Below are positions 7,914 through 32,378 of a DNA stretch of 64,000 nt, piece after piece. Source of the stretch: a virus (Duplodnaviria; Caudoviricetes). The notes under the pieces were generated by a model. The model searched no databases, was not told the origin of the DNA, and worked only from the letters and a program-made list of their open reading frames with translations. Numbering within the stretch: position 1 is the stretch's first letter; every line of letters starts with the position of its first letter. Where the stretch lies: positions 129-64,128 of IMG/VR virus record IMGVR_UViG_3300043313_000605. One strand, 5' to 3'. The position numbers and the translations under genes were made by a program.

Positions 7914-8237
7914 TTATTGGGTGATCTTCGCGACTTGCCGCATGACGTGAATCTTTGCTTCGACTTCGGTCGAGCCGAATGCTACGATCGCAAACGGAAT
8001 CCCACTCTCATCGACAGGGCCGATCGCCGCACGCACGCGTGACGCGACCGGATTCGTCGGATAGACTTGCGTCGCCATCCACCAGCGCGCCGTCGCCACC
8101 ATATCGAACCACCACTTCTCGGCAGCCGCGATCTCGCGCTGGTGATATTTGATGCCGCTTGGCATGACGCCGTAGATTTCGACTGACACGAGCGCGTTGA
8201 ATGGAATGTCTTCGTCAGACCAGCCGATGATGGGCAT
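7914..8237 (-). CDS. hypothetical protein
   Basis: TAATG-coupled to the exonuclease gene. Confidence 0.65.
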   Translation of the reverse strand: MPIIGWSDEDIPFNALVSVEIYGVMPSGIKYHQREIAAAEKWWFDMVATARWWMATQVYPTNPVASRVRAAIGPVDESGIPFAIVAFGSTEVEAKIHVMRQVAKITQ

Positions 8238-9232
8238 TACGCACGGCGACCAAAGCTGGGGCGCAGCACACGAAATACCGTGCGCCGCTGATACGGTAGC
8301 AGATTCAAGTCTGGGTGATCTTCCTTCAGCGCGTCAAGGTCGAGCCACGGCTTGTCCTGTTCCTTGTACGTGACCTTGCCGATGCCGGGAACGACGACTT
8401 CCGTCACACCCTCTGTCTCGACTAGTTCTTTTAGCACTTCCTCAAATCCCTCTTTGATTGCCTTAGCAATCGCGTACTTCTCGCGAGCCTCTTTCACTGC
8501 GCTAAGTGTCTGCTTCCATGCTGGCGTATCCCGCACGAGCGAGCCCGCCGTCAGTTGCGCGCGAGCCCGCGTCTCCTCACTGATGGTCTCGGTATGCCGC
8601 GCCAACCGTTGTGCGTCGAAGTTGCCGGCCTGCACCATCTCCCAGAAGTGATCGCAGACCTCGAAAATCTGCGCAATCATCTCCTCGTCACGTTCGACGT
8701 CGATCGTATACAACACCCAATCCTCCGCGTTCAAGAACGCGAACGAGCCCCACGCCAGACCGGTGACCGCAAGGTAGTGCTGCAATTGTGCGTAGTAGCT
8801 CGGATTGACGCCCACTTCGCGCGTCGCGCGCCAGACCGGCAAACGCGGACACTTCGCTTCCAGAATACCAGTGCCACGCATGGCGGCACGCACTTCATCG
8901 TCAGTAGCATCGACGATCAGCCGATCCGGATTCGCGTGCATGTACGGCCGATCCGGATGCGTAATCGCTGGCCCGAAGTGAATCGTACGCCGGCCCGTGT
9001 CGCGCTCGTACTTTCGCACGCACGCGGCCTCTAGCTCGCGCCCACGCTCCATGTCCGGATTGTCTGGCGTGACGACGACCGGCCGGCTGTCGAGCACCGC
9101 CGTGATGCGCTCGTAGATCGAGCGCGCGTCCGACTGGTGACGATTGACGCCGAGTAGCGTCCCGATGTCACTCCCTCCGATGGAGGGACGCGGGACGTAC
9201 GGCTCGGCGCCGGGGTTGGCGAGATCAGGCAT
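8237..9232 (-). CDS. YqaJ-like (lambda-exonuclease family) recombination nuclease
   Basis: IGGSDIGTLLGVN, RGRELE, ANPDRL, LEAKCP, YYAQLQHYL motifs. Confidence 0.9.
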   Translation of the reverse strand: MPDLANPGAEPYVPRPSIGGSDIGTLLGVNRHQSDARSIYERITAVLDSRPVVVTPDNPDMERGRELEAACVRKYERDTGRRTIHFGPAITHPDRPYMHANPDRLIVDATDDEVRAAMRGTGILEAKCPRLPVWRATREVGVNPSYYAQLQHYLAVTGLAWGSFAFLNAEDWVLYTIDVERDEEMIAQIFEVCDHFWEMVQAGNFDAQRLARHTETISEETRARAQLTAGSLVRDTPAWKQTLSAVKEAREKYAIAKAIKEGFEEVLKELVETEGVTEVVVPGIGKVTYKEQDKPWLDLDALKEDHPDLNLLPYQRRTVFRVLRPSFGRRA

Positions 9233-11812: not shown

Positions 11813-14800
11813 CTACCACTCCGGTTCTTCCGGTTCGCTGTTCGCGTCAGGGCGGGCGCCATTGCCCCTAGAATGCCCTGTAAGCCCTCCAAACCCGTCG
11901 CCGTCAAGGGAACGCCCTGACCGCTGTGCGATCTCGTCTCGGAGCCACCGGATCGCCGCTGGGGTCTTCACGTAGTTGTTGTTCGCCCCCTTCCGCAAGA
12001 ATCCGACGTTCCGGAGCGTCCAGACGGCGGTCCTGAGCGCATTCCGATCTTCGATGCCCAGAATCTCGGTAATGTCGCGCAGGCTGAATGCTTCCTGCTC
12101 CAGCATCGCCCTGACCGCGCCGTCGTTGCTGCGCATGATGCGCGCAACCTCGTCATCGCCCGTGATCTCGTACCGGCGCTTCATGTTGCCGGCGTACTCC
12201 GTGAACGCGAGCGACGGCTTCGAGTAGATCGTATCCAAGAACTGTCCCACGAACTCAACATGCTCTGGCTTGACGATGACCACGTTCCCGTCGTCATCCG
12301 TTGAGAAGAACAGCGCCGCCGTTGCCACGGCGAGCCGTGCGATCTTGATGCGCTGCTCGTTCGGCTCGACCAGCGGAATCTCGGTCCCGTACCGATACGT
12401 GTCACCGTGCCGCATCGCGACGGCGAGCACCGCATCGACGGCATCAGCGGCCCACACCACCTGATCTGCTTTCCGCGACCACGCCCACATCACGCGCTGG
12501 TGGCACAGTTCCGCCGTGAAGATTGCCGGCTCACGATACTCCCGTGTCGCGTTGACGACCGACAGCGGCACGTCATCGGTGGCTGCGGTGAGCACGAGAT
12601 CGAATCGCGCGATGTCTTCTGGGGCGCCGATCATTTCCTTGACCGCCAGCACGCCTTGCGAATAGAACGAGAGCGGCTTGTTCCCTCTGGGGTTCGTAAT
12701 CCAGATCGATCGTGTGCGGGCGAATGTCTTCTCCGTGTGAATCTTCACGATCTCCGCGATGCCACTCGATCGCATCGACGACATGCGCCCGATGTGATCC
12801 TGCGACAGATTGCCCGCCTCGTCGATCACCAGCAGTCGGCGATCATTGAGCGGTACGCGACCCCATTGCAGGGCCCAGTTGGTGCCGACTTGATGAAGTC
12901 CGCCGACAAGACCAGCAAATGATGTATTCTCTCCTGTCGTAAACTCTCCAGCACCGTAATGCAACTGCATTCGCTCGACGATGGTGGATTTACCAGTGCG
13001 AGAGTCGCCGATGATGAGTGCTTCTGACCATCCACGCTTCAGCGCCTCGCCTTGAAAGGTGAACCCGATGAGGGAGTGGTAGACGAGATCGACGGCAAGC
13101 ATGAGATCACGCCGCTGATAGATGCGGGTGACCCCCTCGATGTCGTGATAAATGCCGTTAAGTCGATCCCACAGTCCCTGTACGCCTGCACCAGTTGGTT
13201 GAAAGGCACGTAGTCTCTCCGTGATTGCGTCCGTGAGTTGGAACGCATCGATGTTCGACTGGGCAGGAACGGCTTCATAGATCAGGTGGGTGGCAAGTTG
13301 CCGGCGTGGCTCTGGCACCGTCACGCCGTTCATCACGTAGCTCCGATTGGCTTGGAGCCCGTGTCCGATGTAGTACGCTTCGCGCGTGACGTACGTCCCT
13401 TCGTTCTCGCTGCCGCGCTCGACTTCCGGAATCATCTGCATGACTTCGATGTTGAGCGCATCGACGACCGTCTGCTCGACGAACCGGCACTTGGACGGCA
13501 CGCCGACCTTGCCTTTGATCTGCTTCCCCAGCGTCGCGTCTGGGACGTTGATGAATTGCAGAATCTCATTCGAGGCAAACTCGATCTTGTGCGTCATCGA
13601 GCCGGCCTTCCGCCCCACGGGACACCGCTCGCACATCGGCAGCCCCGGCATCCGGCACGACAGCTTTACCTCGTGCGGGACCAGATACGGCGCAGTTGTT
13701 TTGCCCGATACCATGACATTGACGCGTATCGGCTTGTTGTAGTATTGCTTCTCTGTCGCGCGCGACAGATGGACCAGTGTCGGTTCCTGATCCGCGATCG
13801 GGATGGCGTCTGATTCGCTGGGCACATACAGCGGTGTGCTCCCCACGATCGAATGAAAGTCGTCGATCGAGTGTCCGTGCAGAATGAAGTAGTCGCTGAT
13901 GTCTGGTCCGTGCGTCGGCTTGTACGCCAGTGGCAACTGCACGACCTTAATGCTTGCCGCAGTGCCGTGAATCTCTCTGGCGACGTTGGCTGCCCCTTTT
14001 CGTCCTGCGTCGTCCACATCATAGCAAATGACGACATCCCGGTCACGGACCAGCGGCGTAAATGCGTCACGCCAAGTTCCTGCGCCAGCCGTTGTAGTGT
14101 ACGCGTTGAGCCCCAACTGCCGCGAAACAAGAGTGTCCCATTCTCCCTCACACAGATAGATGGGACCAGTTGCTTCCCATTGATCCAGCGGATACAAGCG
14201 CGCCTCGCCGTAGCCCGTGCGCCACGAGACCATCTTTTCATGCGCTTGCTTCGCATTCGGATCGTAGCGCCGGATGTTGACGATGGCGCCGTCAGTATCG
14301 CGCACTGGAATCGTGAATCGGCGTCCGTCATGCCCCAGCATGTAGCGTTCGATACTGCCATGCGATAAGCCTCGCTTCGTCGCGAGGTAGTCAACATGGT
14401 CTGGCGTTGCGAGTAGCCGCGCATGGAATGCCTCTGGAATCGACGGGTCAATCGTTAGCCGTTCGTCCGATCCTCCGGAAGCCACCCGTGTTCGTTGGCG
14501 CGAAGCTGGCGCTTGTGCTCCGTTGTCGGATGGAGATGCGACCGGATGTCCGTTGGGACTGACTTCACTTCCCCGATCGGGCGCGGCGGGTTGGTGACCG
14601 TTCGATGCGGCCGGATGTTGCTCTCGTTCCAAGTACGCTGCCAAGACGTCTTCCGACGAGCGACGACGCGTAGGATCACCACCAGCGACAGAATAGCCGC
14701 GAGGATGAGAAACGGAACGGGATGTGTCGAGATGTAGTCGATCAGCGATCTCATTGACTGCCTCCGTGAATGTGAGTGAACGCTTTTTCCGGTACAGATC

Positions 14801-15019
14801 GAAGATGTCCCCGCGCGCACCGCACACGGGGTTGTGACAGAAATACAGACCGTCCCTCACATTGACTGAGAAGCACGGCGTATCGGTGTTGTCGTGAAAA
14901 GGGCAGAGCGCCATGCGCTCATTCCCGCGACCACGCATCGACGGCAGCAGTTCCGCGAAGATGGCTGCGTAGTCGATGCGGTCGCGAATGCGAACGACCA
15001 ATTCGTCGAGCGACGTCAT
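11813..15019 (-). CDS. DNA primase-helicase: CHC2 Zn finger + TOPRIM + MCM-like AAA+ helicase
   Basis: CPFHDNTDTP...YFCHNPVC; YLCEGEWD and CYDVDDAG (TOPRIM); IGDSRTGKS, SFAGL, LLVIDEAG, IARFDL (MCM-type Walker A/B and Arg finger). Confidence 0.88.
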   Translation of the reverse strand: MTSLDELVVRIRDRIDYAAIFAELLPSMRGRGNERMALCPFHDNTDTPCFSVNVRDGLYFCHNPVCGARGDIFDLYRKKRSLTFTEAVNEIADRLHLDTSRSVSHPRGYSVAGGDPTRRRSSEDVLAAYLEREQHPAASNGHQPAAPDRGSEVSPNGHPVASPSDNGAQAPASRQRTRVASGGSDERLTIDPSIPEAFHARLLATPDHVDYLATKRGLSHGSIERYMLGHDGRRFTIPVRDTDGAIVNIRRYDPNAKQAHEKMVSWRTGYGEARLYPLDQWEATGPIYLCEGEWDTLVSRQLGLNAYTTTAGAGTWRDAFTPLVRDRDVVICYDVDDAGRKGAANVAREIHGTAASIKVVQLPLAYKPTHGPDISDYFILHGHSIDDFHSIVGSTPLYVPSESDAIPIADQEPTLVHLSRATEKQYYNKPIRVNVMVSGKTTAPYLVPHEVKLSCRMPGLPMCERCPVGRKAGSMTHKIEFASNEILQFINVPDATLGKQIKGKVGVPSKCRFVEQTVVDALNIEVMQMIPEVERGSENEGTYVTREAYYIGHGLQANRSYVMNGVTVPEPRRQLATHLIYEAVPAQSNIDAFQLTDAITERLRAFQPTGAGVQGLWDRLNGIYHDIEGVTRIYQRRDLMLAVDLVYHSLIGFTFQGEALKRGWSEALIIGDSRTGKSTIVERMQLHYGAGEFTTGENTSFAGLVGGLHQVGTNWALQWGRVPLNDRRLLVIDEAGNLSQDHIGRMSSMRSSGIAEIVKIHTEKTFARTRSIWITNPRGNKPLSFYSQGVLAVKEMIGAPEDIARFDLVLTAATDDVPLSVVNATREYREPAIFTAELCHQRVMWAWSRKADQVVWAADAVDAVLAVAMRHGDTYRYGTEIPLVEPNEQRIKIARLAVATAALFFSTDDDGNVVIVKPEHVEFVGQFLDTIYSKPSLAFTEYAGNMKRRYEITGDDEVARIMRSNDGAVRAMLEQEAFSLRDITEILGIEDRNALRTAVWTLRNVGFLRKGANNNYVKTPAAIRWLRDEIAQRSGRSLDGDGFGGLTGHSRGNGARPDANSEPEEPEW
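14455..14754 (-). CDS. nested (+1 frame) putative single-TM protein, 99 aa, inside the primase linker
   Basis: GGAGG 7 nt before ATG; TM PFLILAAILSLVVILRVV followed by RRK; GC-ending codons in this frame. Confidence 0.6.
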   Translation of the reverse strand: MRSLIDYISTHPVPFLILAAILSLVVILRVVARRKTSWQRTWNESNIRPHRTVTNPPRPIGEVKSVPTDIRSHLHPTTEHKRQLRANEHGWLPEDRTNG

Positions 15020-15158
15020 TGCTGGGGCGAGTGACAGGGGAACGAACGGTAGGATGGTGGTAGGGTTGGAGTTTTCCTAATCACTTGGTCCCCTCAGAAA
15101 CCCAAGCAACCAGAGCGCCCTTACGGGTAGCCCACTCCCCCTACCACCAACCGTTGTG

Positions 15159-16022
15159 CTACCACGGAATGTCGTCGTCTTCCGCCGCTTCTCCGGGTTC
15201 GGCCTCGACCACCTGCGCCGTCACCGGGGCGGGTGGGAACAGCGTCGTGCGATACCGCTCACGCTGCGCCATCGCCGCTTGAAACTCCTCGGGCTCCGCA
15301 TCGCGCACGATGGAGAAATCGAGCACGGCGTACGGGTTGTGCGCCGGACCGGCTCTGTGCTGGCTGAACTTCACGATCTTGGTCTGATACGGAATCAGTT
15401 GATCGAGCAGCCCGTTGGCCCACTCGTCGAACGCCGGCACCGATGTGGGCGGCGCGACGAGCACCACGGGTGCCAGCCGATCGGGAAGCCGGATGTAGAT
15501 GCGCCGCTGGTTCGTCACGGCCTTGCCACGCGGACTCTTGTTCGGCGATGCCACCAGCTTGTGTCCCGTGCCCCACTGGTTGTACGGGCATGTCCCACAC
15601 GCGACTTTCAGGATGCCATCGCCCACCTGACCAGCCGGCAGTCCCTCGTGCGCAAAGCCTTCGCGCGGAATGCCGTACTCGTCATCGTTGCTGCTGCACG
15701 CTGGCAGTGACGACAGCTTGTTGTTCGGGTCCGGCGCCGTGCCGTACGGCTTGTCCCACAGCACGTTCGACGGATGCGCGTGCAGGATCATCCCCTCGAA
15801 TTCCTGAAACGTCTTTCCCGGCTTGTCCGTCAACTCGAATTGACAGGCGCCGGAACTGAGCATCTTCACCTGCGTCAGATCGATCGGTGAATGGATGCTC
15901 GATGCCTGCACACGGAGCAGTTCTGCTCTCTGCTCGTCAGACATCAGATGCGCGAGCGACGTTCCCGGTGCGCGCTCGTCTTGCGGTCCTGCGGGTGTTG
16001 ACGATGGCATTGCTCTCTCCAT
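15159..16022 (-). CDS. putative ssDNA-binding/annealing protein
   Basis: Lies between the helicases; CxxCPYNQWG; acidic C-terminal tail EDDDIPW typical of SSBs. Confidence 0.6.
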   Translation of the reverse strand: MERAMPSSTPAGPQDERAPGTSLAHLMSDEQRAELLRVQASSIHSPIDLTQVKMLSSGACQFELTDKPGKTFQEFEGMILHAHPSNVLWDKPYGTAPDPNNKLSSLPACSSNDDEYGIPREGFAHEGLPAGQVGDGILKVACGTCPYNQWGTGHKLVASPNKSPRGKAVTNQRRIYIRLPDRLAPVVLVAPPTSVPAFDEWANGLLDQLIPYQTKIVKFSQHRAGPAHNPYAVLDFSIVRDAEPEEFQAAMAQRERYRTTLFPPAPVTAQVVEAEPGEAAEDDDIPW

Positions 16023-17067: not shown

Positions 17068-18891
17068 CTACGCAGCGAGCGGTAAGAGCCCGATGTGACG
17101 CCGTAGATCGACCACGGCATCGGCCACGGACTTTTTGTGCTTCAGCGCGTCGAGCACGATTTCATCGCTCGTCCCAGTCGCCATCAGATCGATGTACGTC
17201 ACCTGTTGGTGCATCTGTGAGCCGCCGCGATGGTTGCGCCCTTCGGACTGCAAACGATTTTCCAGATCGTAGTTCTGTGAGTAGTAGATCGCGAGCGGCG
17301 CAATCTGCCAATTCATTCCCACGCCACCAGACGCCTGATTCGAGACCATGATCGGCGTCTCTCGGCCGACGAACCGGCGCACATGATTCCGCCGCGCCGT
17401 GTCCCCTTGCCCACCGTAGACGACCGCTGGCGCATACTCACTGAGCGCGCGAGCGATGCGTTCGACGTCCTGTCGATACCACGCCCAGATGATGATGCTG
17501 CCGTTCGGCACGTTCTCCTCGACCAACTCTTGCAGCGCGTTCAGCTTCGGGTTTGGATCGAACGTGAACGTCTCGCCCTGATCGTCCGTGACGAATCCGC
17601 TCGTGATTTGCGACAGCCGCAAGATCATCGTCAACTGGTTCGCCGCCGTCGCCACCTGATCGGATTCTTCCGACAGCGCCGTCACCAGATCGCGCTCTAG
17701 CTCCTCGTACGCCCGCTTCTGCTCTCTGGTCAACTCGACCAGTTCTTTCTGCCACACGCGCGGCGGGAGATCGGGGATGCCCATCTCTTTCGTCACGCGG
17801 TAGCCGCGCCGCCGCATGCGCAGCCCGATCTCCGTCTGCGCCTGCTCGTTCTTAACGGACACCTTGAACGTGTACGGATTCTCGACGAGCCATTCGCGCC
17901 GGTACTGCACGAAGTTTGGCCCGAACGTCACGCCGAGATCGACCATGTACCACTGCGACCACACGTCCTGCTCTCCACGGATGACCGGCGATCCCGTCAT
18001 GATCATGCGCCAGCGCGCCGCGTTGGCGAGCCGCATGCCGCTCTGCGTCATCTTCGCATCCGGGTTGCGCAACTTCTGCGACTCGTCGATCACGATCCCG
18101 GTTTTCTTCGATCGCATGAGCAGCAACAACTCGTCTTCCATCAACCGCAGCACGTCGTGATTGATCAGCACGACCGGATAGAACCCTTCGGGCACGACAC
18201 GCTCGCCGCGCGCGATACGCTTGATCATCTCGATCCGCTCGGGCACCGGCCCTCTGAGGAGGATCGGCTTAATGTCGCGCGTCCACTCCTCCGCTTCCAG
18301 TTCCCACACGCTGTCGAGCGTCGCTTTCTTGCCCGCGACGATCACGACATCGAGATCACCAGAGTGCAGTAGCTCGCGCATGACTTCGTAGGCCGCGCGC
18401 GTCTTGCCCGTGCCGACTTCGCCCAGAATAGCGCAGCCGTCGAGCCCGAGCCCCATCGCAGCCATGATCGCTTGATGGTTGTACTCGCCACGATACTTCC
18501 AGACGCGTACGCCTTCGGCCGTGTACTCGACGTATTCTTCATCGGCTGATGGATCGGCTGGCGTCCCTGCACGATTGTCCAACCACGGCAACTCCGGACG
18601 CCAGCCGGTCTCCAGCTTCTCGTGTAGCTCGCGAACAAACTCCTCACTCTTGGCTGCCGCCTTCGACCACGCAATGACTCCCGGCGTGCAGTACGACGCA
18701 AACTGTGCTTTCGAGACCCCCAACTCCTGCCGCATCGCTCTGAGCATTTCGAGCGTCAGCGACAACTCCACGGCACGGCGCTTGGGATTGACCGCCGCGC
18801 CGGGGAGCCCAGATAGCACCTGCATGGACGGCCCCGTGACATAGAGCCGTCCATACATTGCATCGATCTTTAGCTGGATCGTTGGTGGCAC
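17068..18891 (-). CDS. SNF2-family (SF2) helicase
   Basis: GEVGTGKT, VIDESQKLRN, MTGSP, GGVGMN, QSEGRNHR motifs. Confidence 0.9.
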   Translation of the reverse strand: MPPTIQLKIDAMYGRLYVTGPSMQVLSGLPGAAVNPKRRAVELSLTLEMLRAMRQELGVSKAQFASYCTPGVIAWSKAAAKSEEFVRELHEKLETGWRPELPWLDNRAGTPADPSADEEYVEYTAEGVRVWKYRGEYNHQAIMAAMGLGLDGCAILGEVGTGKTRAAYEVMRELLHSGDLDVVIVAGKKATLDSVWELEAEEWTRDIKPILLRGPVPERIEMIKRIARGERVVPEGFYPVVLINHDVLRLMEDELLLLMRSKKTGIVIDESQKLRNPDAKMTQSGMRLANAARWRMIMTGSPVIRGEQDVWSQWYMVDLGVTFGPNFVQYRREWLVENPYTFKVSVKNEQAQTEIGLRMRRRGYRVTKEMGIPDLPPRVWQKELVELTREQKRAYEELERDLVTALSEESDQVATAANQLTMILRLSQITSGFVTDDQGETFTFDPNPKLNALQELVEENVPNGSIIIWAWYRQDVERIARALSEYAPAVVYGGQGDTARRNHVRRFVGRETPIMVSNQASGGVGMNWQIAPLAIYYSQNYDLENRLQSEGRNHRGGSQMHQQVTYIDLMATGTSDEIVLDALKHKKSVADAVVDLRRHIGLLPLAA

Positions 18892-20324: not shown

Positions 20325-20567
20325 TCAGTCAGTCACGCGCAACGCTCCGAGACCAGCATATTCCAGATATAGTAGGAACGTTGTCGCGCCGAGTTTCTTT
20401 GTTGGAAATGGCAAGCCAGTCATGTCTTGCACGCGCACTACGACGTCTTCCATGTACCGTCGCTTCGGCTCTGGCCGACTCCAATTGAGCCGCGCCATCT
20501 TCCGCACGACCGCCTGAAACGTCTTCCCCTCGAAGATCAGGCCGTCACTTGTGGTGAACATGATCAT
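20325..20567 (-). CDS. hypothetical protein coupled to the amidoligase
   Basis: ATGA overlap; GGGAGAG RBS. Confidence 0.65.
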   Translation of the reverse strand: MIMFTTSDGLIFEGKTFQAVVRKMARLNWSRPEPKRRYMEDVVVRVQDMTGLPFPTKKLGATTFLLYLEYAGLGALRVTD

Positions 20568-21658
20568 CGCACTCTCCCGCGCGCTGCGCGCCGGTTCGCG
20601 CGCAGCAACTCTATACGCTGCTGCTCGACAGCGGTGACCGTCTGATCTTGCGTAATCACGAGCGGATTCACCTGACCGCGCAACCGTTGTGCTGCCGCTG
20701 ACGGCATCCGCGACGCTGGCGCATGTGCCAGCGTCCGGATGCGCGCCAACGGGTCCAGATCGAGCCGTCTGCTCTCCAACTCCGGATTCCACGCGATGCG
20801 CCGATTCTCGATCCACTGCATCAGATCGCGCGTGACCGGATGCGCGTGCGGCTCACGCAGGCCGAGCACCGCGCCCACGTACTCCGTGTCGATCGCCCGC
20901 ATGCGCTGGCGCGGCACGTACGGCTCCAGCGCCACGTTCGTCTTCGCACGCTCAACGAGCGACAGCATGAGCATCGCCCATTCGCGCATCTCCTGATAGC
21001 TGATCGTGCCGTGGTGCAAGCGAACCTCGATCCGGCCAGAGTGCCACCACGGGCGCAGGTTGAGTGCGATGCGCGGCCAATTGTCCGGGTTGGCGTGATC
21101 GCGCGCGCCCGTGATCATCCGATGGACGTTGGTCCAATGAAAACTCGGCTGCCCATCCAACTCGTACGTACAGAGCGGCGCGCAGTACGAGCGCGCGCGC
21201 CGGTACGGCGGCACGAGCGAAAACCAGAACGGCTCGTAGCGCGCCCAGAGCCACACGAGATTCTGCACCTGCGCCCACGAGAGATCGCGCGTCTCGATAT
21301 GCATGTGCAGGCCGCACGAGTTGTTCACCACCGGATCGAGCGCCGCGAAGTGATGGCAGACGCGCTCTAGCTCCTCGTTCTGTCCTTCCGCATTCAGTTG
21401 CAGCGCACGGCTCGCGACTTCCCAGCCGGACGTCGCATCCGTCTTGACGTCCCATGTATTGCCGTCGCTCTTGTACCACCCAACCTCACGCGGGTTGAGA
21501 TAGCGCGCTGGCGCCCCGACGTCAGACAGCGCGTTCGCAACCGCCGTTTTGAGCGAGCGCGCTTGCAGCGCCCTGCGGTTCCGCCGCTGCTTGTTGATCT
21601 CGATCTCGATCCCGATGTTCCGGCCCATCCACGGCGCGTACAGACGATTAGTAGGCAT
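20564..21658 (-). CDS. putative amidoligase (COOH-NH2 ligase, Amidoligase_2-like)
   Basis: IGIEIE, WDVKTDATS, WEVAS, NNSCGLHMHI, RIEVRLHHGT motifs. Confidence 0.85.
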   Translation of the reverse strand: MPTNRLYAPWMGRNIGIEIEINKQRRNRRALQARSLKTAVANALSDVGAPARYLNPREVGWYKSDGNTWDVKTDATSGWEVASRALQLNAEGQNEELERVCHHFAALDPVVNNSCGLHMHIETRDLSWAQVQNLVWLWARYEPFWFSLVPPYRRARSYCAPLCTYELDGQPSFHWTNVHRMITGARDHANPDNWPRIALNLRPWWHSGRIEVRLHHGTISYQEMREWAMLMLSLVERAKTNVALEPYVPRQRMRAIDTEYVGAVLGLREPHAHPVTRDLMQWIENRRIAWNPELESRRLDLDPLARIRTLAHAPASRMPSAAAQRLRGQVNPLVITQDQTVTAVEQQRIELLRANRRAARGRVR

Positions 21659-22670
21659 GCATATCCAGTGAAAGTTGTTCCTCGACCGCACGCAACTTCT
21701 GGTCAACGATGATCTTTTGCAACGTCTGGACGCGAGCCTCTAGCTTCTCAATGCGGTCCTGAAGGTCGCGCAGTGAGATCAACTTCGCCGGCTCATCCGA
21801 CTCCCTCGTATACGGGCGCATCTGGTCCATCGAATACGACTCACGCGATGACGAGCCAGTCCACCGCTCCGCATCTCCGCGCGAGATCGCGAGCGTGCCC
21901 CACGACCGATCCGCCTCCAGCGTCTTCTGCGCCGGCTGGCCCTGCGCGAAGCGCGCCATGTTGATGCGCAGCGCGCGGTCAGCCGGTAGCTCACGAATCG
22001 TGTAGTCCTTTGGCTTGAACCCGTGGCGCTTCAACACCCGCACGATGTTGGTGCCTAGTGAATTCCAGACGAGCATCTTCATGTTCGGAATCCACGCGTA
22101 CGCGAGCACACCCTGCTGCGAGCGCGCCAGATACAGATGCTCGCCCTTCGTCCATGAGAGTGCGAAGTACCCCTCAACCTGCTCCAGCGCCGCAAGCGGG
22201 TCTTCGTTGACGTCGAGCAGCGCGAACACCGCTTCTGAGTCCACCTTCCACTTCAGCTTCTGCGCAGCCACCAGCTTGTCCTTCACCAACCGTTGTTCGA
22301 CTTTCTTCCAGTTGCTGATGATCCCATTGTGGCACCCAACGACGTTGCCGATCTGGAATGGGTGCGCGCAGTCGTCACGCGACGCGTTGTCGTGCGACGC
22401 ACGGCGCGTGTGCAACTGGATCGCGACCGTGGACGCGTCGATCTCCTGATCGAGAATCTTCTGCCACGGCTCGCTCGCGCGCACGACGGACGCCTTGGAT
22501 GCCGTCTTCCAGACGAACGGGTTGTCGAACGCATCGATGTGCGTGATCGCGATGCCGGTCGCATGGGAGCCACGATCCTCGATCGTGCCCACCAGTTGAT
22601 CCGTCATCTCGCGCGCCAACTCCAGCGAGTTGCCGTCAGCCTGCCTGAGAATACCTGCCAGTCCGCACAT
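21648..22670 (-). CDS. class II (Ntn) glutamine amidotransferase
   Basis: N-terminal MCGLAG, RGSHATG, HTRRAS, AHPF, HNGII, VDSEA. Confidence 0.9.
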   Translation of the reverse strand: MCGLAGILRQADGNSLELAREMTDQLVGTIEDRGSHATGIAITHIDAFDNPFVWKTASKASVVRASEPWQKILDQEIDASTVAIQLHTRRASHDNASRDDCAHPFQIGNVVGCHNGIISNWKKVEQRLVKDKLVAAQKLKWKVDSEAVFALLDVNEDPLAALEQVEGYFALSWTKGEHLYLARSQQGVLAYAWIPNMKMLVWNSLGTNIVRVLKRHGFKPKDYTIRELPADRALRINMARFAQGQPAQKTLEADRSWGTLAISRGDAERWTGSSSRESYSMDQMRPYTRESDEPAKLISLRDLQDRIEKLEARVQTLQKIIVDQKLRAVEEQLSLDMHAY

Positions 22671-23101
22671 TATCGTGATGCCCTCGGAAATGCCGCACGC
22701 GACCAGAACGTCCCGATCGGTGTCGCCCGCGACTCCTCGATCGTCTCGATCGTCGCCACGTAGATGTACGCATCGACGCGCTCGCCGTTCTCCAGATACG
22801 CCTCCGTCAACTCACGACGATAGAGCCCGCGCGACACGCCTTCGTACATGTCGAGCAACTCCAGCATGCGCGTTGGATTATCCAACTCGACGACTTCACC
22901 CTGCACGATCTTTCGGTCTTCGGTCAGTGTGTCGTCAGTGAACGCCATCGGATAGGCGCGATGCTCTGGCAGGTACAGCGTGTAGCCATAGACGACCGCA
23001 GGAATGTGCGGACCAACCTCGCCCCACGCCATTAGCGGTGATCTAGGCTCGTCGCCATACGTCTTCAATGTTCCGTACACGAACAGATGCTTGGTGGACA
23101 T
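22670..23101 (-). CDS. gamma-glutamylcyclotransferase (AIG2-like)
   Basis: LFVYGTLK, VQGEV, LDMYEG...YRR motifs. Confidence 0.88.
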   Translation of the reverse strand: MSTKHLFVYGTLKTYGDEPRSPLMAWGEVGPHIPAVVYGYTLYLPEHRAYPMAFTDDTLTEDRKIVQGEVVELDNPTRMLELLDMYEGVSRGLYRRELTEAYLENGERVDAYIYVATIETIEESRATPIGTFWSRAAFPRASR

Positions 23102-27330: not shown

Positions 27331-27864
27331 ATGCCTGAGATCAGTAAGAAAGAGCCACGCATTTCACCTAAAGCGTTTGCTGATATCACAGACGCTATCT
27401 TCGCGAAGGGCAATCACTTCACTGGCGTCTCGATTGCCGCGCACATGGGCCAGAAGCAGTATCAGCTTTGGACTGCGGTAAAATCGCGGGGCTTGACGGC
27501 CGGCGAGGCTCGCATGTTCTCCGACGCGCTCGATCAATGGTCCATCGAGTTGATGAACATGGCGAGAAAGATGAGGCGGCTTGCTACCGAACTGGAGGGT
27601 GGGACTCTCCCGCCCATGCTCCCGCTCGCTGAAGCGCGGCGCGCGGCGCGGCCTCATGTGTATGCTGCGGCAGACGGACCCATCCTGAGCGCTCCGGATT
27701 ACGCGGATCACGGACTACCGGCAGAGGAGCGCGCAGCCGAGCGCGCCAGCGCCGAGCCCGAGACCGAATCCGCGCAGGACGACGAGCCGGTTGCGTCTCC
27801 GCTCGACATCGAGCCGGCGCGCGCCGACGTCGATGAGCCCGTGCAGCGTAGCCGCTTCGCCTGA
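27331..27864 (+). CDS. only plus-strand gene; putative HTH regulator
   Basis: Strong GGAGG RBS; FTGVSIAAHMGQKQYQLWTAVK is HTH-like; divergent from the early arm. Confidence 0.65.
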   Translation: MPEISKKEPRISPKAFADITDAIFAKGNHFTGVSIAAHMGQKQYQLWTAVKSRGLTAGEARMFSDALDQWSIELMNMARKMRRLATELEGGTLPPMLPLAEARRAARPHVYAAADGPILSAPDYADHGLPAEERAAERASAEPETESAQDDEPVASPLDIEPARADVDEPVQRSRFA

Positions 27865-28287
27865 CCGCACGGTCAGGAGCGAGTCCTTCAGCGCGACAAC
27901 GGTTGCGCAGTCGCGCTGAAGGTTGGAACACCGGCTGGCGAGGGTGTCGTAGTCGGCCTTCGCCACGTAGGGCAGGGAATCGACGGCCGAGCTATCTCTG
28001 CCCTCTCGCGTGACAATCGTCCGTGTACGGGGCACGTAGACGATCACAGGCGCCTTCCCGAGCGCCGAGTCGAGCAGCCGGTTGGACACCTGAAGGGTGA
28101 CGACGGCCACCCGCTCGCGCTCACTCAGCGCCGTGTACCGCGCGCCGAGCACGCCGAGCGAATCGCGCAACTGTTGTTCGCGCTGGGTGGCCTCGGCATC
28201 CTGCCGGCGCGAGACCCACCACATCCCCGCCAACATCCCCAGCACGATCGCCACGATCACGAGCGCTACGAGCCGTGTCCACTTCAT
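27715..28287 (-). CDS. membrane protein with N- and C-terminal hydrophobic segments (spanin candidate)
   Basis: MKWTRLVALVIVAIVLGMLAGMWW..., coiled coil, C-terminal GFGLGLGAGALGCALLC; last gene of the late operon. Confidence 0.6.
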   Translation of the reverse strand: MKWTRLVALVIVAIVLGMLAGMWWVSRRQDAEATQREQQLRDSLGVLGARYTALSERERVAVVTLQVSNRLLDSALGKAPVIVYVPRTRTIVTREGRDSSAVDSLPYVAKADYDTLASRCSNLQRDCATVVALKDSLLTVRSGEAATLHGLIDVGARRLDVERRRNRLVVLRGFGLGLGAGALGCALLCR

Positions 28288-28661
28288 GTGGGCACCACGT
28301 ACCGCACGCGGGAGTACGGCAGCTTCGCCACGACGCGGATCGAGCGCGTCGTTTCGCTCTCGACGATCAGGAAGATGAATTTCTTCCCGCTCTCGGTGAT
28401 CGCAATAGCGTCGAGTGCGTCCGGCTCCAGATCGATGCCGGGAATGTTCACGAGATAGTCCGTGACCGTGCCGGACGGCGGATCGCAGTCCCACACGAGC
28501 GACGGGTCTGGTGGCGTCAGTTCCGGGTCCGGGTCATTCGTCAAATACGCGCGCACATCGTCTTCCATGTACGGCGTCTTTTTGCGCGTTGGCACATCGA
28601 CTACCCACAGCTTTGCGCTGTACGGCAAGTCGTTGTATGGCGTGATCGCTTGCACTGGCAT
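28284..28661 (-). CDS. hypothetical (possibly virion accessory) protein
   Basis: Follows the large repeat protein; beta-rich composition. Confidence 0.65.
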   Translation of the reverse strand: MPVQAITPYNDLPYSAKLWVVDVPTRKKTPYMEDDVRAYLTNDPDPELTPPDPSLVWDCDPPSGTVTDYLVNIPGIDLEPDALDAIAITESGKKFIFLIVESETTRSIRVVAKLPYSRVRYVVPT

Positions 28662-28664
28662 GGG

Positions 28665-31600
28665 TCACCCCGATGGGAATTGCCGCGCGACGAGCGACGG
28701 CATCGTGGGAACGTGGACGAGCGTGACGTCAGGCACAACGTCGCGCAGGAGCATCATCAGATCAACCGGCACGAGCGCGATCGGGAGATCGCGCTCGTCG
28801 AGCACGGGGTCCGGCAGCAGGCCAGCCAGCGCGTGCGGCAGCGTGATCGGCAGCAGTTCGCCAATCACGAGAATCGGATCGTACGGCGCCACGGCAGTGA
28901 GCAGCGTCATACCGCCCCGCTGCTGCATCAGATCGGACACCACCTGCACGAGCGCCGATAGCGCAATCGCGCCTGTTGGCGAAATGTTGCCAGCCGACGT
29001 GACCTGCACGCCAGACTGCACAACCGTTGTGCCCTGTCGCCCCAGCAACAGGGTGGACGTAATGCCGGACGCCGCGAGCAGTGCCGTCAGGCTTGCGCGG
29101 CCTTGCGTGCTGCTTGCGACCACAGTGTTCGCGACTTGCGCAATCGTGGTGCTCTGGCGCCCCTGCGCGAGCGCGGATGCGATCGAGATGCGCGCCTGAA
29201 GGCTCGTAGACGACGACCGGCCGTGCGTGCTGATGGAGTCAATATCAGACGGATTGCCCTGCACATCGCCGATCGTCACGCTCTGGCGCCCCTGCGCGAG
29301 CGCCGAGATGATCGAGGCGAGCACGGTGCCAGTGACGCTCCCGGCGCGCCCCTGCACGCTCGCATTCACGAGATCAGCAGCCGCCTGCATCGCTGTGACG
29401 CTCGCACGCTCGTGCACGAGCGCCGACACGATCGAGACGAGCGCGGACAGATCGGTGACACTCTGCCGATTCTGCGTGCTCGATGACGTGACGTTGACGC
29501 CAACATCAAGGTCGGTGACGCTGGCGCGAAGATGGGCGAGCGTGGACGCGAGATCGTTGACGGCCTGCACAACCGTTGTGCTCTGCCGGCCCTGCTGGAG
29601 TGCCGACGCGAGTGCCAGCGCCGCTGCAAGCGTGGTCACGCCCGAGCGTTCCTGCTGGGATGTGCTGTCAACCGAGAGGAACGCCGGCCCCGTCACCGTG
29701 CCGGCTGTGCTGCTCGATCGGCCCTGCGCGAGCGCCGACACGAGATCGGCGGCAACGGCGGCAACGGTTGCGCTCGCGCGGCCCTGCGTCAGCGCCGAGA
29801 TGATATCCGCTTCGCTGATCAGTGTTGCCGCGCCACTACGCCCCTGCGCGAGCGCCGACGTGATATCCGCTTCGCTGATCAGCGCCGTGATGCCAGAGCG
29901 CCCCTGCGCGAGCGCAGACGCCAGCGCGTTTGAGACCGTGCCGGTGATCGCGCCTGCTCGGCCCTGTGTGAGCGCGGAGATCAGATCAGCAGCCGCCGCT
30001 ACAACGGTTGTGCTGGAGCGCCCCTGCGCGAGCGCCGACGCCAATGCATTCGAGACCGTCCCCGTAATTGTGCCTGCTCGACCCTGCGTCAGCGCCGACG
30101 CCAAATCAGCGGCAGCCGCTACAACAGTTGCGCTGGAGCGACCCTGTGTGAGCGCGGAGACCAGATCAGCGGCAACGGCCGCTATCGTTGCGCTGGAGCG
30201 GCCCTGTGTGACCGACGTCGTGATATCGGCTGCTGGCGTGACGACCGTGCCCGTGATACTCCCGCTGCGATCGTGCGTACTGTTCGACGTGATGCTGTTT
30301 GACACGCCGCCAGCGACCGTGCCGCTGCGACCGTGTGCGCTGGTGGAATCAATGCTGTTCGATACGCTACCAGCCGCAGAGCCGCTGCGGCCTTGCATGA
30401 CCGTTGTCGTCAGCGCGAGCGCTGCCGCCAGTTCCGTGAGCGACGAACGACCGTGCGTGCTCGACGACGTAGCAGAGAGACCGCTGCTCACCGGCTCTGG
30501 CTTGATCGCGAACAACACGCCGGTATTGAGCGACGCCGTTGAGATGGTCGCCGTGCGACCGCTGACTGCACCAGCGGTGATGCGATTGTCGTCCGACGTC
30601 TCCATCGACACTGCGCTCGCCGCAGGAATGGCGGCAGCGAGGATAATGTGCCGCGCAGCGCTCGTCGTCGTTGACGCGAGCGTCCCGGTCAACGCGCCCG
30701 TAGCGACGCCGTTCGCTGGGTAGAGACGATAACCGCTGTGTGTGGCGTTCTGTGTGGTGGCGTTTCCGCCAGACGCCGTGCCGGTCGTGAGTCCCGTGTA
30801 GTTGGTGGGCAGCGAATTGAGCGCAACGTTCGTAGACGGTGCGCCAACCCAGATGGAAACTGTATTCGCTTGCGATGGCGTTAGTGTCGGTGCGGTGACG
30901 CTCGCCGTCGCTGTTGAGCCGGACGTTGGCGTCGAGGCTTGTGCATTGAGCAGGACTGGTGTGCCGTGTTGCCCGCGCCACGTTTCGGAAATCCCAGATG
31001 TTTTCGCCGTTGCGGCAGAGAGCACGAACGTGACGGAGCCTGCCGTGACATGCGTCGAGGTTACGACGACCCAATACGAGTGCAGCCGTGATGTTGGCGA
31101 TGCGGCCAAATTACCTTGTGGCGTGCCAACCTGCGCCCATCCAGTCGGCACGGTACTGACCGTGAGTGTTCCGGATTTGACGTTGAAGCTGGCGTACCAA
31201 AAATCACCCGCAACCGCGCCTGCTGGGAGCGGAACGACGACGTTGGCACTCGCGGCTGACTGGTTGATGGCCGAGATGCCAGAGCGGAACAGTCGTGGAT
31301 CGTACTGATCGTCCGTTTCTTCGATGAATGTTGGATCGGTCCCACTCGGCACGCCCGATGTGTTCGACCCGACCGACGACGCAACCGCGAACATCAGCGA
31401 TCCGTTCGTCAGCGATGTCGTGGTCGAGAACGTGACGGTGGCGCTCGATGCGTTTGCGCTGCCGGTGATCGCCTCGATCGGATCACCAGAACTCAGTGCG
31501 CCGGCAATCGCGAAGATGCGACCGACCGCACTGCCGCCGCTCGCGCGCGTGAACGTGACCGATCCAGTCTCCGATCCAGTTGCCGCCGCCGTCTTGTAAA

Positions 31601-32378
31601 AGACTTCCGTTCGCAGCCCCGTGCCGTTGTTCGTGCCGGATTTCGATGTCCACCCAGTCGAAGACCCAGCAACGTTGTCGAGGCTCGTGATGACCGCAAC
31701 AAAGCGATCCCCGGCGACGATCGTCGCTGGATAGGCAAGCGTGAGATCGCCGCTGGCTACGCTTCCGACTGCTCCAGTCGATCGGACGTAGACGCCTCGG
31801 ACCAGCGTGAGTTTTGGATCACTGGTTGTCCCGGCCGCATCAGCAGAAGTGATGGAACACGATTCTGTTCCTGATGGCGATACGTTGGTTCGTTGGTTTT
31901 CAGCAAAGACGACGAATCCTGTCGTCCCGCCACCAACGACCACGTTTGGGTCGAGCGAAATCGCGTAGGGTGTGGCAGCACCAATGTCGGAAGGGATGGC
32001 AACAGAACCACCGGCCGGCAGCGAGCCAAGCGTTGACCCTGCCCGAAATGTCGAGGTTGTGACTGTTGCGCCAGCGTCGTAGCCGCGCGCCTCCAGCGTA
32101 AACGCGGCTTCGCTAAAGCGTAGTCCAACTTCAAGCGTCAGCGACGCGGCATCTGGCGCTCCGGACCATGCCGACGTGTCAAATCGCAAAAATGCTTCAT
32201 AGCATCGTAGGTCTCCACCAGAACGCTGCCCAACTGACATGCTCGCAGTAGTGCCAGTAGGGTCTTCAAGCGTCAGAGCAGCGCTGCCAGTTCCTTCGCG
32301 CGCGTCCGCGTATACAGCCGTAGCAGCAGACCGTACATAGTTGTCTTCGACGCCAGCAAAGATGACGGTGCGCGCCAT
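28665..32378 (-). CDS. large fibre/adhesin-like protein with about 20-aa S-x-x-x-(Q/H)-G-R-S repeats
   Basis: 1237 aa, Ala/Ser/Thr-rich; N-terminal beta-sandwich-like domains; more than 20 repeats such as ADLVSALTQGRSSATVVAA. Confidence 0.75.
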   Translation of the reverse strand: MARTVIFAGVEDNYVRSAATAVYADAREGTGSAALTLEDPTGTTASMSVGQRSGGDLRCYEAFLRFDTSAWSGAPDAASLTLEVGLRFSEAAFTLEARGYDAGATVTTSTFRAGSTLGSLPAGGSVAIPSDIGAATPYAISLDPNVVVGGGTTGFVVFAENQRTNVSPSGTESCSITSADAAGTTSDPKLTLVRGVYVRSTGAVGSVASGDLTLAYPATIVAGDRFVAVITSLDNVAGSSTGWTSKSGTNNGTGLRTEVFYKTAAATGSETGSVTFTRASGGSAVGRIFAIAGALSSGDPIEAITGSANASSATVTFSTTTSLTNGSLMFAVASSVGSNTSGVPSGTDPTFIEETDDQYDPRLFRSGISAINQSAASANVVVPLPAGAVAGDFWYASFNVKSGTLTVSTVPTGWAQVGTPQGNLAASPTSRLHSYWVVVTSTHVTAGSVTFVLSAATAKTSGISETWRGQHGTPVLLNAQASTPTSGSTATASVTAPTLTPSQANTVSIWVGAPSTNVALNSLPTNYTGLTTGTASGGNATTQNATHSGYRLYPANGVATGALTGTLASTTTSAARHIILAAAIPAASAVSMETSDDNRITAGAVSGRTATISTASLNTGVLFAIKPEPVSSGLSATSSSTHGRSSLTELAAALALTTTVMQGRSGSAAGSVSNSIDSTSAHGRSGTVAGGVSNSITSNSTHDRSGSITGTVVTPAADITTSVTQGRSSATIAAVAADLVSALTQGRSSATVVAAAADLASALTQGRAGTITGTVSNALASALAQGRSSTTVVAAAADLISALTQGRAGAITGTVSNALASALAQGRSGITALISEADITSALAQGRSGAATLISEADIISALTQGRASATVAAVAADLVSALAQGRSSSTAGTVTGPAFLSVDSTSQQERSGVTTLAAALALASALQQGRQSTTVVQAVNDLASTLAHLRASVTDLDVGVNVTSSSTQNRQSVTDLSALVSIVSALVHERASVTAMQAAADLVNASVQGRAGSVTGTVLASIISALAQGRQSVTIGDVQGNPSDIDSISTHGRSSSTSLQARISIASALAQGRQSTTIAQVANTVVASSTQGRASLTALLAASGITSTLLLGRQGTTVVQSGVQVTSAGNISPTGAIALSALVQVVSDLMQQRGGMTLLTAVAPYDPILVIGELLPITLPHALAGLLPDPVLDERDLPIALVPVDLMMLLRDVVPDVTLVHVPTMPSLVARQFPSG
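29020..30480. repeat. degenerate ~60-bp tandem coding repeats
   Basis: Recurrent gccctgcgcgagcgccga / gccctgtgtgagcgcgga units at about 60-bp spacing. Confidence 0.8.

Follow-up and report, generated by a model that had tools for sequence, protein, structure and literature searches.

In phage lambda, the small envelope-protein gene Rz1 lies wholly inside another phage gene, Rz, in the +1 frame and with its own start, an arrangement that is often missed by gene callers (PMC6139136). Here we describe an arrangement that shares each of these traits, a 99-codon open reading frame (ORF) that probably encodes a membrane protein and that is nested in the primase-helicase gene of a tailed soil phage (Duplodnaviria; Caudoviricetes). 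The DNA in question, referred to below as the window, is the whole 64,000-nucleotide stretch from position 129 to position 64,128 of IMG/VR virus record IMGVR_UViG_3300043313_000605. The survey that treats Rz/Rz1 covered 677 phage genomes and left the o-spanin unidentified in 196 systems (PMC6139136). Rz1 is an outer-membrane lipoprotein that belongs to a lysis cassette and whose host gene encodes its own partner (PMC6139136), whereas the protein nested here has a predicted transmembrane helix, neither a cysteine nor a lipobox, and a replication enzyme as the product of its host gene.

A second parallel is found in the plasmid RSF1010/R1162, where mobB is a small accessory gene, read in another frame, inside mobA/repB, the gene for a primase-containing multidomain DNA enzyme (PMC2200642). 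That case differs from ours in concerning plasmid mobilisation rather than a phage, and the two show no sequence relation, our nested protein having no family match. MobB is membrane-associated. Going by the title of a 2007 paper by Parker and Meyer, the transport signals of the relaxase/primase reportedly require MobB, and by that title the nested MobB works with its host protein. In hepadnaviruses, as here, the disordered linker of a replication enzyme (the polymerase spacer) overlaps a membrane-protein gene, preS/S, and a codon-usage analysis led to the proposal that the spacer frame is the younger one, born inside a pre-existing S gene (PMC8227390). However, these are animal viruses with a far longer overlap and a structural envelope protein, while our overlap takes up 300 nucleotides of a 64-kb tailed-phage contig.

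Phage phi29 encodes two early membrane proteins, p16.7 and p1, which are described as anchoring the replication machinery to the membrane (PMC4974454). Both consist of a membrane anchor and a cytoplasmic part, as the nested product would, which fits the idea of a tether. Unlike the ORF studied here, they are encoded by separate rather than nested genes and have no sequence relation to it (no Pfam match); they also bind a terminal protein, of which we saw no sign in this phage, although none was searched for. Phage T7 carries the small ORFs 4.1 and 4.2 in another frame within primase-helicase gene 4, and we know of no membrane helix or conservation evidence for either. T7 4.2 appears in one study as a hypothetical gene of low essentiality (PMC11482910). 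A literature search showed no membrane-protein gene nested in a phage primase gene among the titles and abstract openings listed (15 of 33 matching papers). We regard the nested protein as a new family and the primase-helicase gene as a new host, in an arrangement of known type, the embedded gene pair.

The IMG/VR record is linear, 64,128 bp long, ~67% complete and 61% G+C, and the minus strand carries nearly all genes of the window. The features on which the argument turns are as follows.

11813..15019, minus strand: primase-helicase gene, 1068 amino acids (ORF and Pfam)
14455..14754, minus strand: nested ORF, offset by +1 from the primase gene, with 99 codons and a TAA stop (14457-14455)
14662..14718, minus strand: coding sequence of the predicted transmembrane helix, nested residues 13-31, VPFLILAAILSLVVILRVV (hydropathy and AlphaFold2)
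14581..14631, minus strand: coding sequence of the conserved tail motif, nested residues 42-58, WNESNIRPHRTVTNPPR (residues invariant in 4/4 sequences)
14450..14716, minus strand: low-complexity linker of the primase frame, about residues 102-190, long in the closest relatives only and fast-evolving

Three Pfam domains, all above their curated cutoffs, occur in the one large ORF: Zn_ribbon_DnaG (PF01807, residues 6-101), Toprim_2 (PF13155, residues 288-365), and the MCM P-loop domain (PF00493, residues 654-778). This combination identifies a primase of the DnaG type, with Zn-ribbon and TOPRIM domains, that is joined to a helicase of the MCM type. The nested ORF lies wholly inside 11813..15019, on the same strand and offset by +1, between the Zn-ribbon and TOPRIM domains, and so the first-pass annotation, a reading of the sequence that had claimed a 99-residue +1-frame ORF between these domains, was right as to its place (14754..14455, minus strand). 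Taken to its full extent, the +1 ORF spans 14820..14455 and would give 121 residues from a GTG or 99 residues from the ATG at 14754. The 99-residue product begins MRSLIDYISTHP and continues with a hydrophobic stretch, the residues ARRK, and a hydrophilic tail. Its ATG is built from primase codons N89 and E90 (aAT Gag), and its TAA arises where the primase encodes the L and T of its conserved peptide DERLT.

From our sequence comparisons, we consider it quite likely that this ORF is a real nested gene, whose product would sit in the membrane N-out/C-in and have a disordered, basic tail in the cytoplasm. The first-pass annotation had already called it a real gene, a claim that codon usage, synonymous reshuffles, and three conserved homologs of the same length now support well, short of proof. 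Between 14755 and 14480, G+C at third codon positions (GC3) of the primase frame is 0.34 to 0.53 against a gene mean of 0.70, while first-position G+C of the primase, which is the GC3 of the nested frame, is 0.70 to 0.79; the earlier impression of mostly G/C-ending codons in the nested frame and A/T-ending codons in the primase linker was therefore accurate. We also carried out the frame-specific codon analysis that had been suggested as a check, using a codon log-likelihood model for which 42 ORFs on the minus strand of the window served as the training set. Over 14455..14754 the nested frame scored +24.3 and the primase frame -18.8. Elsewhere, true frames had a mean score of +40 (standard deviation [SD] 12), compared to means of -53 and -44 (SD 17 and 13) for the two alternative frames. 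The nested stretch is the most extreme in the window, its score being equaled by none of 2,088 alternative-frame windows, and the best alternative-frame score outside the primase gene was 1.7, at the start of ORF 27715-28494. We considered this ORF as a second frame anomaly (+1 frame 1.7 versus -10.1 over its first 100 codons) and set it aside, as its start is probably mis-set in our crude gene list and it overlaps a real ORF at 28284-28661. Codon usage of the same DNA correlated with that of the genome at r = 0.58 when read in the nested frame and r = 0.15 in the primase frame. Real 99-codon in-frame stretches gave r = 0.69 ± 0.09 with a minimum of 0.34 (n = 203), a minimum below which the primase frame falls.

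We asked what chance alone would give by holding the primase protein fixed and redrawing its codons from the phage's own usage in 20,000 trials. A +1 frame open for 99 codons is cheap under this scheme (P = 0.51), as is the ATG (P = 0.28). Indeed, the +1 frame is open for 385 codons over 13666-14820 (minus strand) with the stop at 14457-14455 as its only interruption, and the 261 open codons downstream of that stop (13666..14451) are without coding signature. This downstream stretch serves as an internal control, since it indicates that long open alternative frames come cheaply in a 61% G+C genome and that ORF length is no evidence of a gene. The helix and the codon score behaved differently. 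The hydrophobicity maximum of the reshuffled frames was 0.20 ± 0.44 and reached 2.12 at most, versus 2.79 observed, and their codon log-likelihood score was -17.5 ± 6.5 with a top value of 9.0, versus +24.3 observed. Since 0 of 20,000 reshuffles reached either observed value, neither is a side effect of the primase amino acid sequence. The reshuffles also contained fewer T-ending primase codons than the real sequence (15.1 ± 3.4 versus 27; P = 0.00125).

A BLASTP search with the 99-residue protein returned a single match among 5 candidates, P0062 (100 residues, 56% identity, E = 6e-23). A profile search of 1.84 billion representatives at E <= 0.001 returned three matches, P0063 (98 residues, 6e-21), P0064 (100 residues, 4e-13), and P0065; we dropped P0065 as a homolog, as it is a 686-residue repeat artefact. 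The three homologs kept are metagenome proteins that were called independently of this work. A further profile search, in a 5.8-billion set, gave the same three proteins. P0062 and P0064 come from contigs of 1,209 and 718 bp, and no contig is recorded for P0063. Identity among the nested proteins is 0.38 to 0.57 (43 to 57% for the three homologs in alignment A3). All four sequences start at the same methionine, are 98 to 100 residues long, and have an uncharged N-terminal flank and a C-terminal flank of +3 to +5 around the helix, and the maximum Kyte-Doolittle hydropathy over 19 residues (KD19) is 2.44 to 3.17 in the homologs (2.79 in the query). Conservation of the start and of the helix, which the first-pass annotation had named as a check, is seen at the protein level. 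Furthermore, W42, S45, N46, I47, P49, R51, T52, N55, P56, P57, and R58 are invariant in 4/4 sequences, all of which end in [TK]N[GD]. When the homologs were back-translated by eye, their first residues yielded the primase peptide xELA and their last residues [DE]ERL. When the codons that the independently called primase proteins P0001 and P0002 (the two closest relatives of the host enzyme) allow are read in the +1 frame, they are compatible with all four family members (z = 14 to 38; +2-frame control, z = -2.2 to 0.6), from which it follows that the nested homologs must sit at the same place in primase genes.

Selection among these relatives was tested on their protein sequences, with codon positions back-inferred. 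In our judgment, two contrasts internal to the alignment decide for selection on the nested frame. The first concerns the C-terminal third of the protein, where identity at nested second positions is 0.21 to 0.67 and close to random (0.21 to 0.24) in 2 of 6 pairs. The corresponding values for the helix and the middle region are 0.45 to 0.80. A C-terminal third that is near random in two pairs implies that the divergence time was not short. The second concerns the helix core (16 columns), in which 12 columns vary, and 12 of these 12 vary by T/C only at the nested second position, which is the wobble position of the primase. The corresponding count for T/C-only variation is 7 of 28 in the middle region and 1 of 16 in the C-terminal region. 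The T/C changes in the helix core keep its residues hydrophobic or small and are silent in the primase, and hence the constraint must come from the nested frame. Of the 2,117 wobble differences involving T in 16 pairs of single-coded primase genes, the C/T share was <=0.67; two-fold codons inflate this share, which makes 0.67^12 = 0.008 a conservative bound. In addition, identity among the four sequences in the helix is only 35 to 65% and yet KD19 remains 2.4 to 3.2, and A+T at nested second positions is ~0.5 in all four, compared to a wobble A+T of 0.23 in the genome.

The product is predicted to be a single-pass membrane protein. Its KD19 maximum of 2.79 falls on residues 13-31 and is followed by ARRK, in agreement with the earlier description of a clean transmembrane helix followed by basic residues. 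An AlphaFold2 model built from the four-row alignment contains helices at residues 2-10 and 12-45, with a predicted local distance difference test score (pLDDT) of 86 to 90 over residues 11-30. A 12-residue N terminus without net charge precedes the membrane segment and a positive juxtamembrane stretch, RRK, follows it. Given the modeled helix and this charge pattern, the positive-inside rule would place the N terminus outside and the tail in the cytoplasm. The tail comprises ~65 C-terminal residues, is basic (isoelectric point ~11) and probably disordered, and carries the motif W..SNIxPxRTxxNPPR. The 99 residues include 0 cysteines, which means that the protein has no lipobox and does not qualify as an o-spanin of the Rz1 type.

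If this reading is correct, the primase mRNA would be read twice. Ribosomes starting at 15019 would make the primase, and others, loading on an internal GGAGG and starting at the ATG at 14754, would make the 99-residue protein. Neither a sigma-70-like promoter nor a terminator was found in 14300-15300, and with no promoter-like site nearby we infer internal initiation on the primase mRNA. The nested frame would dominate the DNA at this point, fixing T or C at primase third positions and thereby keeping the helix hydrophobic. Almost any sequence would do for the primase linker, so that codon choice would be set by selection on the membrane protein. The product itself might be an accessory early protein that recruits a cytoplasmic partner to the membrane by way of its tail motif.

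What that protein does is harder to say from its sequence. The roles put forward in the first-pass annotation (a replisome tether, an exclusion factor, or a toxin) are guesses; Pfam, PHROGs, and PADLOC contain no matching family. One possibility of some weight, though we would not favor it outright, is that the gene is real and that its role is unrelated to replication, the tolerant linker merely housing a superinfection exclusion factor, a host takeover protein, a small membrane toxin, or a lysis-timing factor. Of these, superinfection exclusion or host takeover may be the role on much the same footing. Such roles would suit a small protein that crosses the membrane once, matches no known family, and is encoded in an early/replication module, and overprinted proteins are described as mostly accessory (PMC8227390). 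However, searches of all four family members against PADLOC (E <= 1) and PHROGs matched 0 families, the protein has no cysteine with which to form a lipobox, and its gene is inside a primase gene rather than in a recognized lysis cassette. A holin would be expected in a lysis cassette beside an endolysin; here, the scanned neighbors are replication genes or genes of unknown function with no endolysin among them, and the lysis genes of this phage were not located. Somewhat less likely, by analogy to phi29 p16.7 and p1, the partner of the tail could be the phage replication machinery or DNA. The nested protein does not belong to the p16.7 family as far as Pfam (0 families at E <= 0.1) and PHROGs (0 families) can tell.

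A different question is which of the two frames came first, and here the relatives of the primase are informative. A search with primase residues 1-320 returned 61 proteins at E <= 0.001 among 5,794 candidates, and 17 of the 61 were aligned with the query (alignment A1). Only the query and P0001 to P0004 have the long linker (whole-protein identity of 86, 76, 69, and 68%, respectively), and from P0005 onward the stretch is ~40 to 100 residues shorter. In the overlap, the primase frame is 0.54 identical to P0001, compared to 0.88 to 0.91 elsewhere, and 0.47 identical to P0002, compared to 0.72 to 0.84. On this alignment evidence, the overlap is the fastest-evolving and a weakly constrained part of the primase protein. 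Searches with the primase protein against viral and genome contig sets found nothing, while the primase alignment found 101 relatives in viral contigs, 80 of which were kept, all <=46% identical. Eight of these 80 loci could be parsed (Zn motif and EGExD both in one ORF, minus one duplicate), and all eight have shorter linkers, with 146 to 196 residues from Zn motif to EGExD compared to 252 in the query. A clean membrane helix in another frame was found in 0 of the 8; the nearest approach was a 105-codon open +1 stretch with a hydropathy of 1.83, and the only G+C-rich locus among them has a normal linker GC3 of 0.73. Linker expansion and nested ORF share the same narrow distribution.

It is possible, if rather unlikely, that of the two frames the one for the membrane protein is older or dominant, that the long primase linker is the newcomer, and that the product serves as a membrane tether for the primase-helicase or phage DNA. 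A small membrane-protein gene would then have been engulfed when the Zn-ribbon and the TOPRIM-helicase were bridged over it, or the linker would have grown over it. By the codon-usage criterion used for hepadnaviruses (PMC8227390), the higher correlation of the nested frame makes that frame look ancestral and the primase frame novel. Stronger selection on the nested frame would look alike, however, and for this reason we give the idea of an older membrane-protein frame little weight. If it were true, membrane-protein genes would recurrently be housed in disordered linkers of the replication enzymes that they serve, with the hepatitis B virus spacer/preS and RSF1010 mobA/mobB as parallel cases.

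Several observations weigh against a working gene and must be set beside the contrasts described above. At nested first positions (second positions of the primase), identity among the homologs is 0.71 to 0.79, and at nested second positions it is 0.59 to 0.72. A calibration set of 820 single-coded primase gene pairs had a wobble identity of 0.41 to 0.49 where second-position identity was 0.75 to 0.80, and one of 0.65 already at 90% protein identity. Were the sources of the homologs no further apart than P0001 is from the query (90% identity outside the linker), wobble positions would be expected to be ~0.65 identical without any selection, and the 0.59 to 0.72 alone is for that reason not decisive. 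Primase replacements relative to P0001 were distributed over first, second, and third codon positions as 20:11:1 in the overlap and 45:23:10 elsewhere, which is no difference. For P0003 and P0004, despite their long linker, compatibility with the nested family is weak (z up to 4.7). The homologs were ascertained solely as gene-called, intact ORFs on short contigs, and broken copies would be invisible. Pfam, PHROGs, PADLOC, and the ESM Atlas give the protein no function; the best ESM Atlas score was 0.89, without a named family, and is a lead only. The AlphaFold2 model is weak overall (mean pLDDT of 61), with a tail that scores <50 and is disordered. Finally, the start signals are largely forced by a conserved primase peptide, as detailed below.

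Some of these points would also be expected if the ORF were not a working gene at all, being instead the fading imprint of a small gene that was inserted or engulfed, or a chance open frame, with short divergence and a neutral linker accounting for its conservation. The open frame, the ATG, and the Shine-Dalgarno sequence are each cheap (0.51, 0.28, and 0.42), the +1 frame stays open for 261 further codons with no signal, and identity in the primase-frame linker (0.54 and 0.47 for P0001 and P0002) is about that of the nested proteins. Against this stand the contrasts within the family: the T/C-only pattern in 12 of 12 variable helix-core columns versus 8 of 44 elsewhere, with a null share of at most 0.67; hydrophobicity kept in all four helices while their residues changed; a C-terminal third far less conserved than the rest; and a second-position A+T held at twice the wobble value or so. 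Taken together, these make a nonfunctional frame improbable.

In the start region, the present analysis departs from the first-pass annotation. The following features are needed to see why.

14761..14765, minus strand: Shine-Dalgarno sequence GGAGG, in primase codons T85-E86-A87, 6 nucleotides (CAGTCA) before the ATG
14766..14781, minus strand: leader GTTCACTCACATTCAC, a loose look-alike of the GTTCACTGAGG start-associated motif and mostly a by-product of primase residues S-L-T-F-T
63663, 63338, 62942, 62397, 61608, 60993, and 23119, with near-matches at 22943, 20306, and 2365, minus strand: copies of GTTCACTGAGG from a motif scan

The full leader, GTTCACTCACATTCACGGAGG, occupies 14781-14761. 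Its spacer from GGAGG to ATG, previously given as 7 nucleotides, is 6. Given the conserved primase peptide TFTEAVNE, the probability of GGAGG is 0.42, that of GGAGG together with the ATG is 0.12, and that of GTTCAC is 0.50, and the weight formerly put on leader and ribosome-binding site was accordingly too high. GGAGG-N4-9-ATG occurs 14 times on the minus strand, at starts of our crude gene set in 2 cases, and RNA folding around the nested start was not significant (z = +1.17). Since the start signals come close to free at this site, they may be the reason why a gene could arise there. The leader had also been said to resemble a start-associated motif. The motif itself is real, GTTCACTGAGG occurring in 10 copies with <=1 mismatch, of which 7 are exact, against an expectation of 0.96, and every copy lying on the minus strand, but the nested leader, whose ATTCACGGAGG is 2 mismatches away, is only a look-alike. 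Most copies of GTTCACTGAGG lie 15 to 21 nucleotides upstream of the start codon of a small ORF and cluster at 60.9 to 63.7 kb. A Shine-Dalgarno-like GAGG forms part of the motif, which may act as a promoter, a leader, or an extended ribosome-binding signal specific to this phage.

That the +1 frame is instead reached by ribosomal frameshifting, giving a Zn-ribbon fused to a membrane anchor, would be in keeping with a frame that stays open upstream of the ATG to 14820 and with start signals that are mostly by-products of primase residues, but it is highly improbable, as we noticed no slippery site (though none was sought), a canonical GGAGG-N6-ATG is present, the three homologs are all called with a start at the same position, and a fused product would lack the end of the Zn-ribbon domain, whose Pfam match runs to residue 101.

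A nested membrane-protein gene of this kind would bear on how such genes are found. Standard gene callers forbid a gene wholly inside another, and such genes are consequently absent from phage annotations and protein-family libraries. A Pfam scan of the 99-residue protein at E <= 0.1 matched 0 families, and tblastn of the protein against 50,697 phage records gave no match at E <= 1. The nested family likewise had no relatives in metagenome, viral, and genome contig sets, and when its profile was run against the 10,759 open segments of all loci, the sole hit was the window (next-best E value, 0.039). A frame-specific codon score and a synonymous reshuffle nevertheless single out one 300-nucleotide stretch in 64 kb of a single genome, and a protein search of billions of sequences then finds homologs, called only on short contig fragments. 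Both single-genome tests could be applied across phage genomes to find more such genes. Should the nested protein work together with the primase-helicase, it would be a phage equivalent of the way in which replication is anchored to the membrane in phi29 and would make the linker the third independent one in a replication enzyme to share its DNA with a membrane protein.

The primase gene sits in a replication module that also contains the following genes.

8237-9232: RecE-like exonuclease
17068-18891: DNA helicase (PHROG "DNA helicase")

Just upstream of this helicase/primase module, adjacent genes at 20564-22670 (minus strand) match the PHROGs for an amidoligase (5.8e-19) and a glutamine amidotransferase (4.3e-20), a pair that might be part of a nucleotide or DNA modification pathway. 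An unannotated ORF of 1,237 codons at 28665-32378 (minus strand) was dropped from our crude gene set by the GC3 filter. Eight soil-metagenome runs are listed with the window sequence, with no RNA run among those listed. Four of these runs have only short pieces. Some match the window exactly; the others are <90% alike, and each of these others covers at most ~40 bases of the nested ORF. One variant soil-metagenome contig of 168 bases covers the end of the Zn-ribbon coding region (14763-14930), ending just upstream of the nested ATG, and has 28 differences from the window (~83% identity), a level of divergence indicating that a related strain co-occurs in the soil metagenome.

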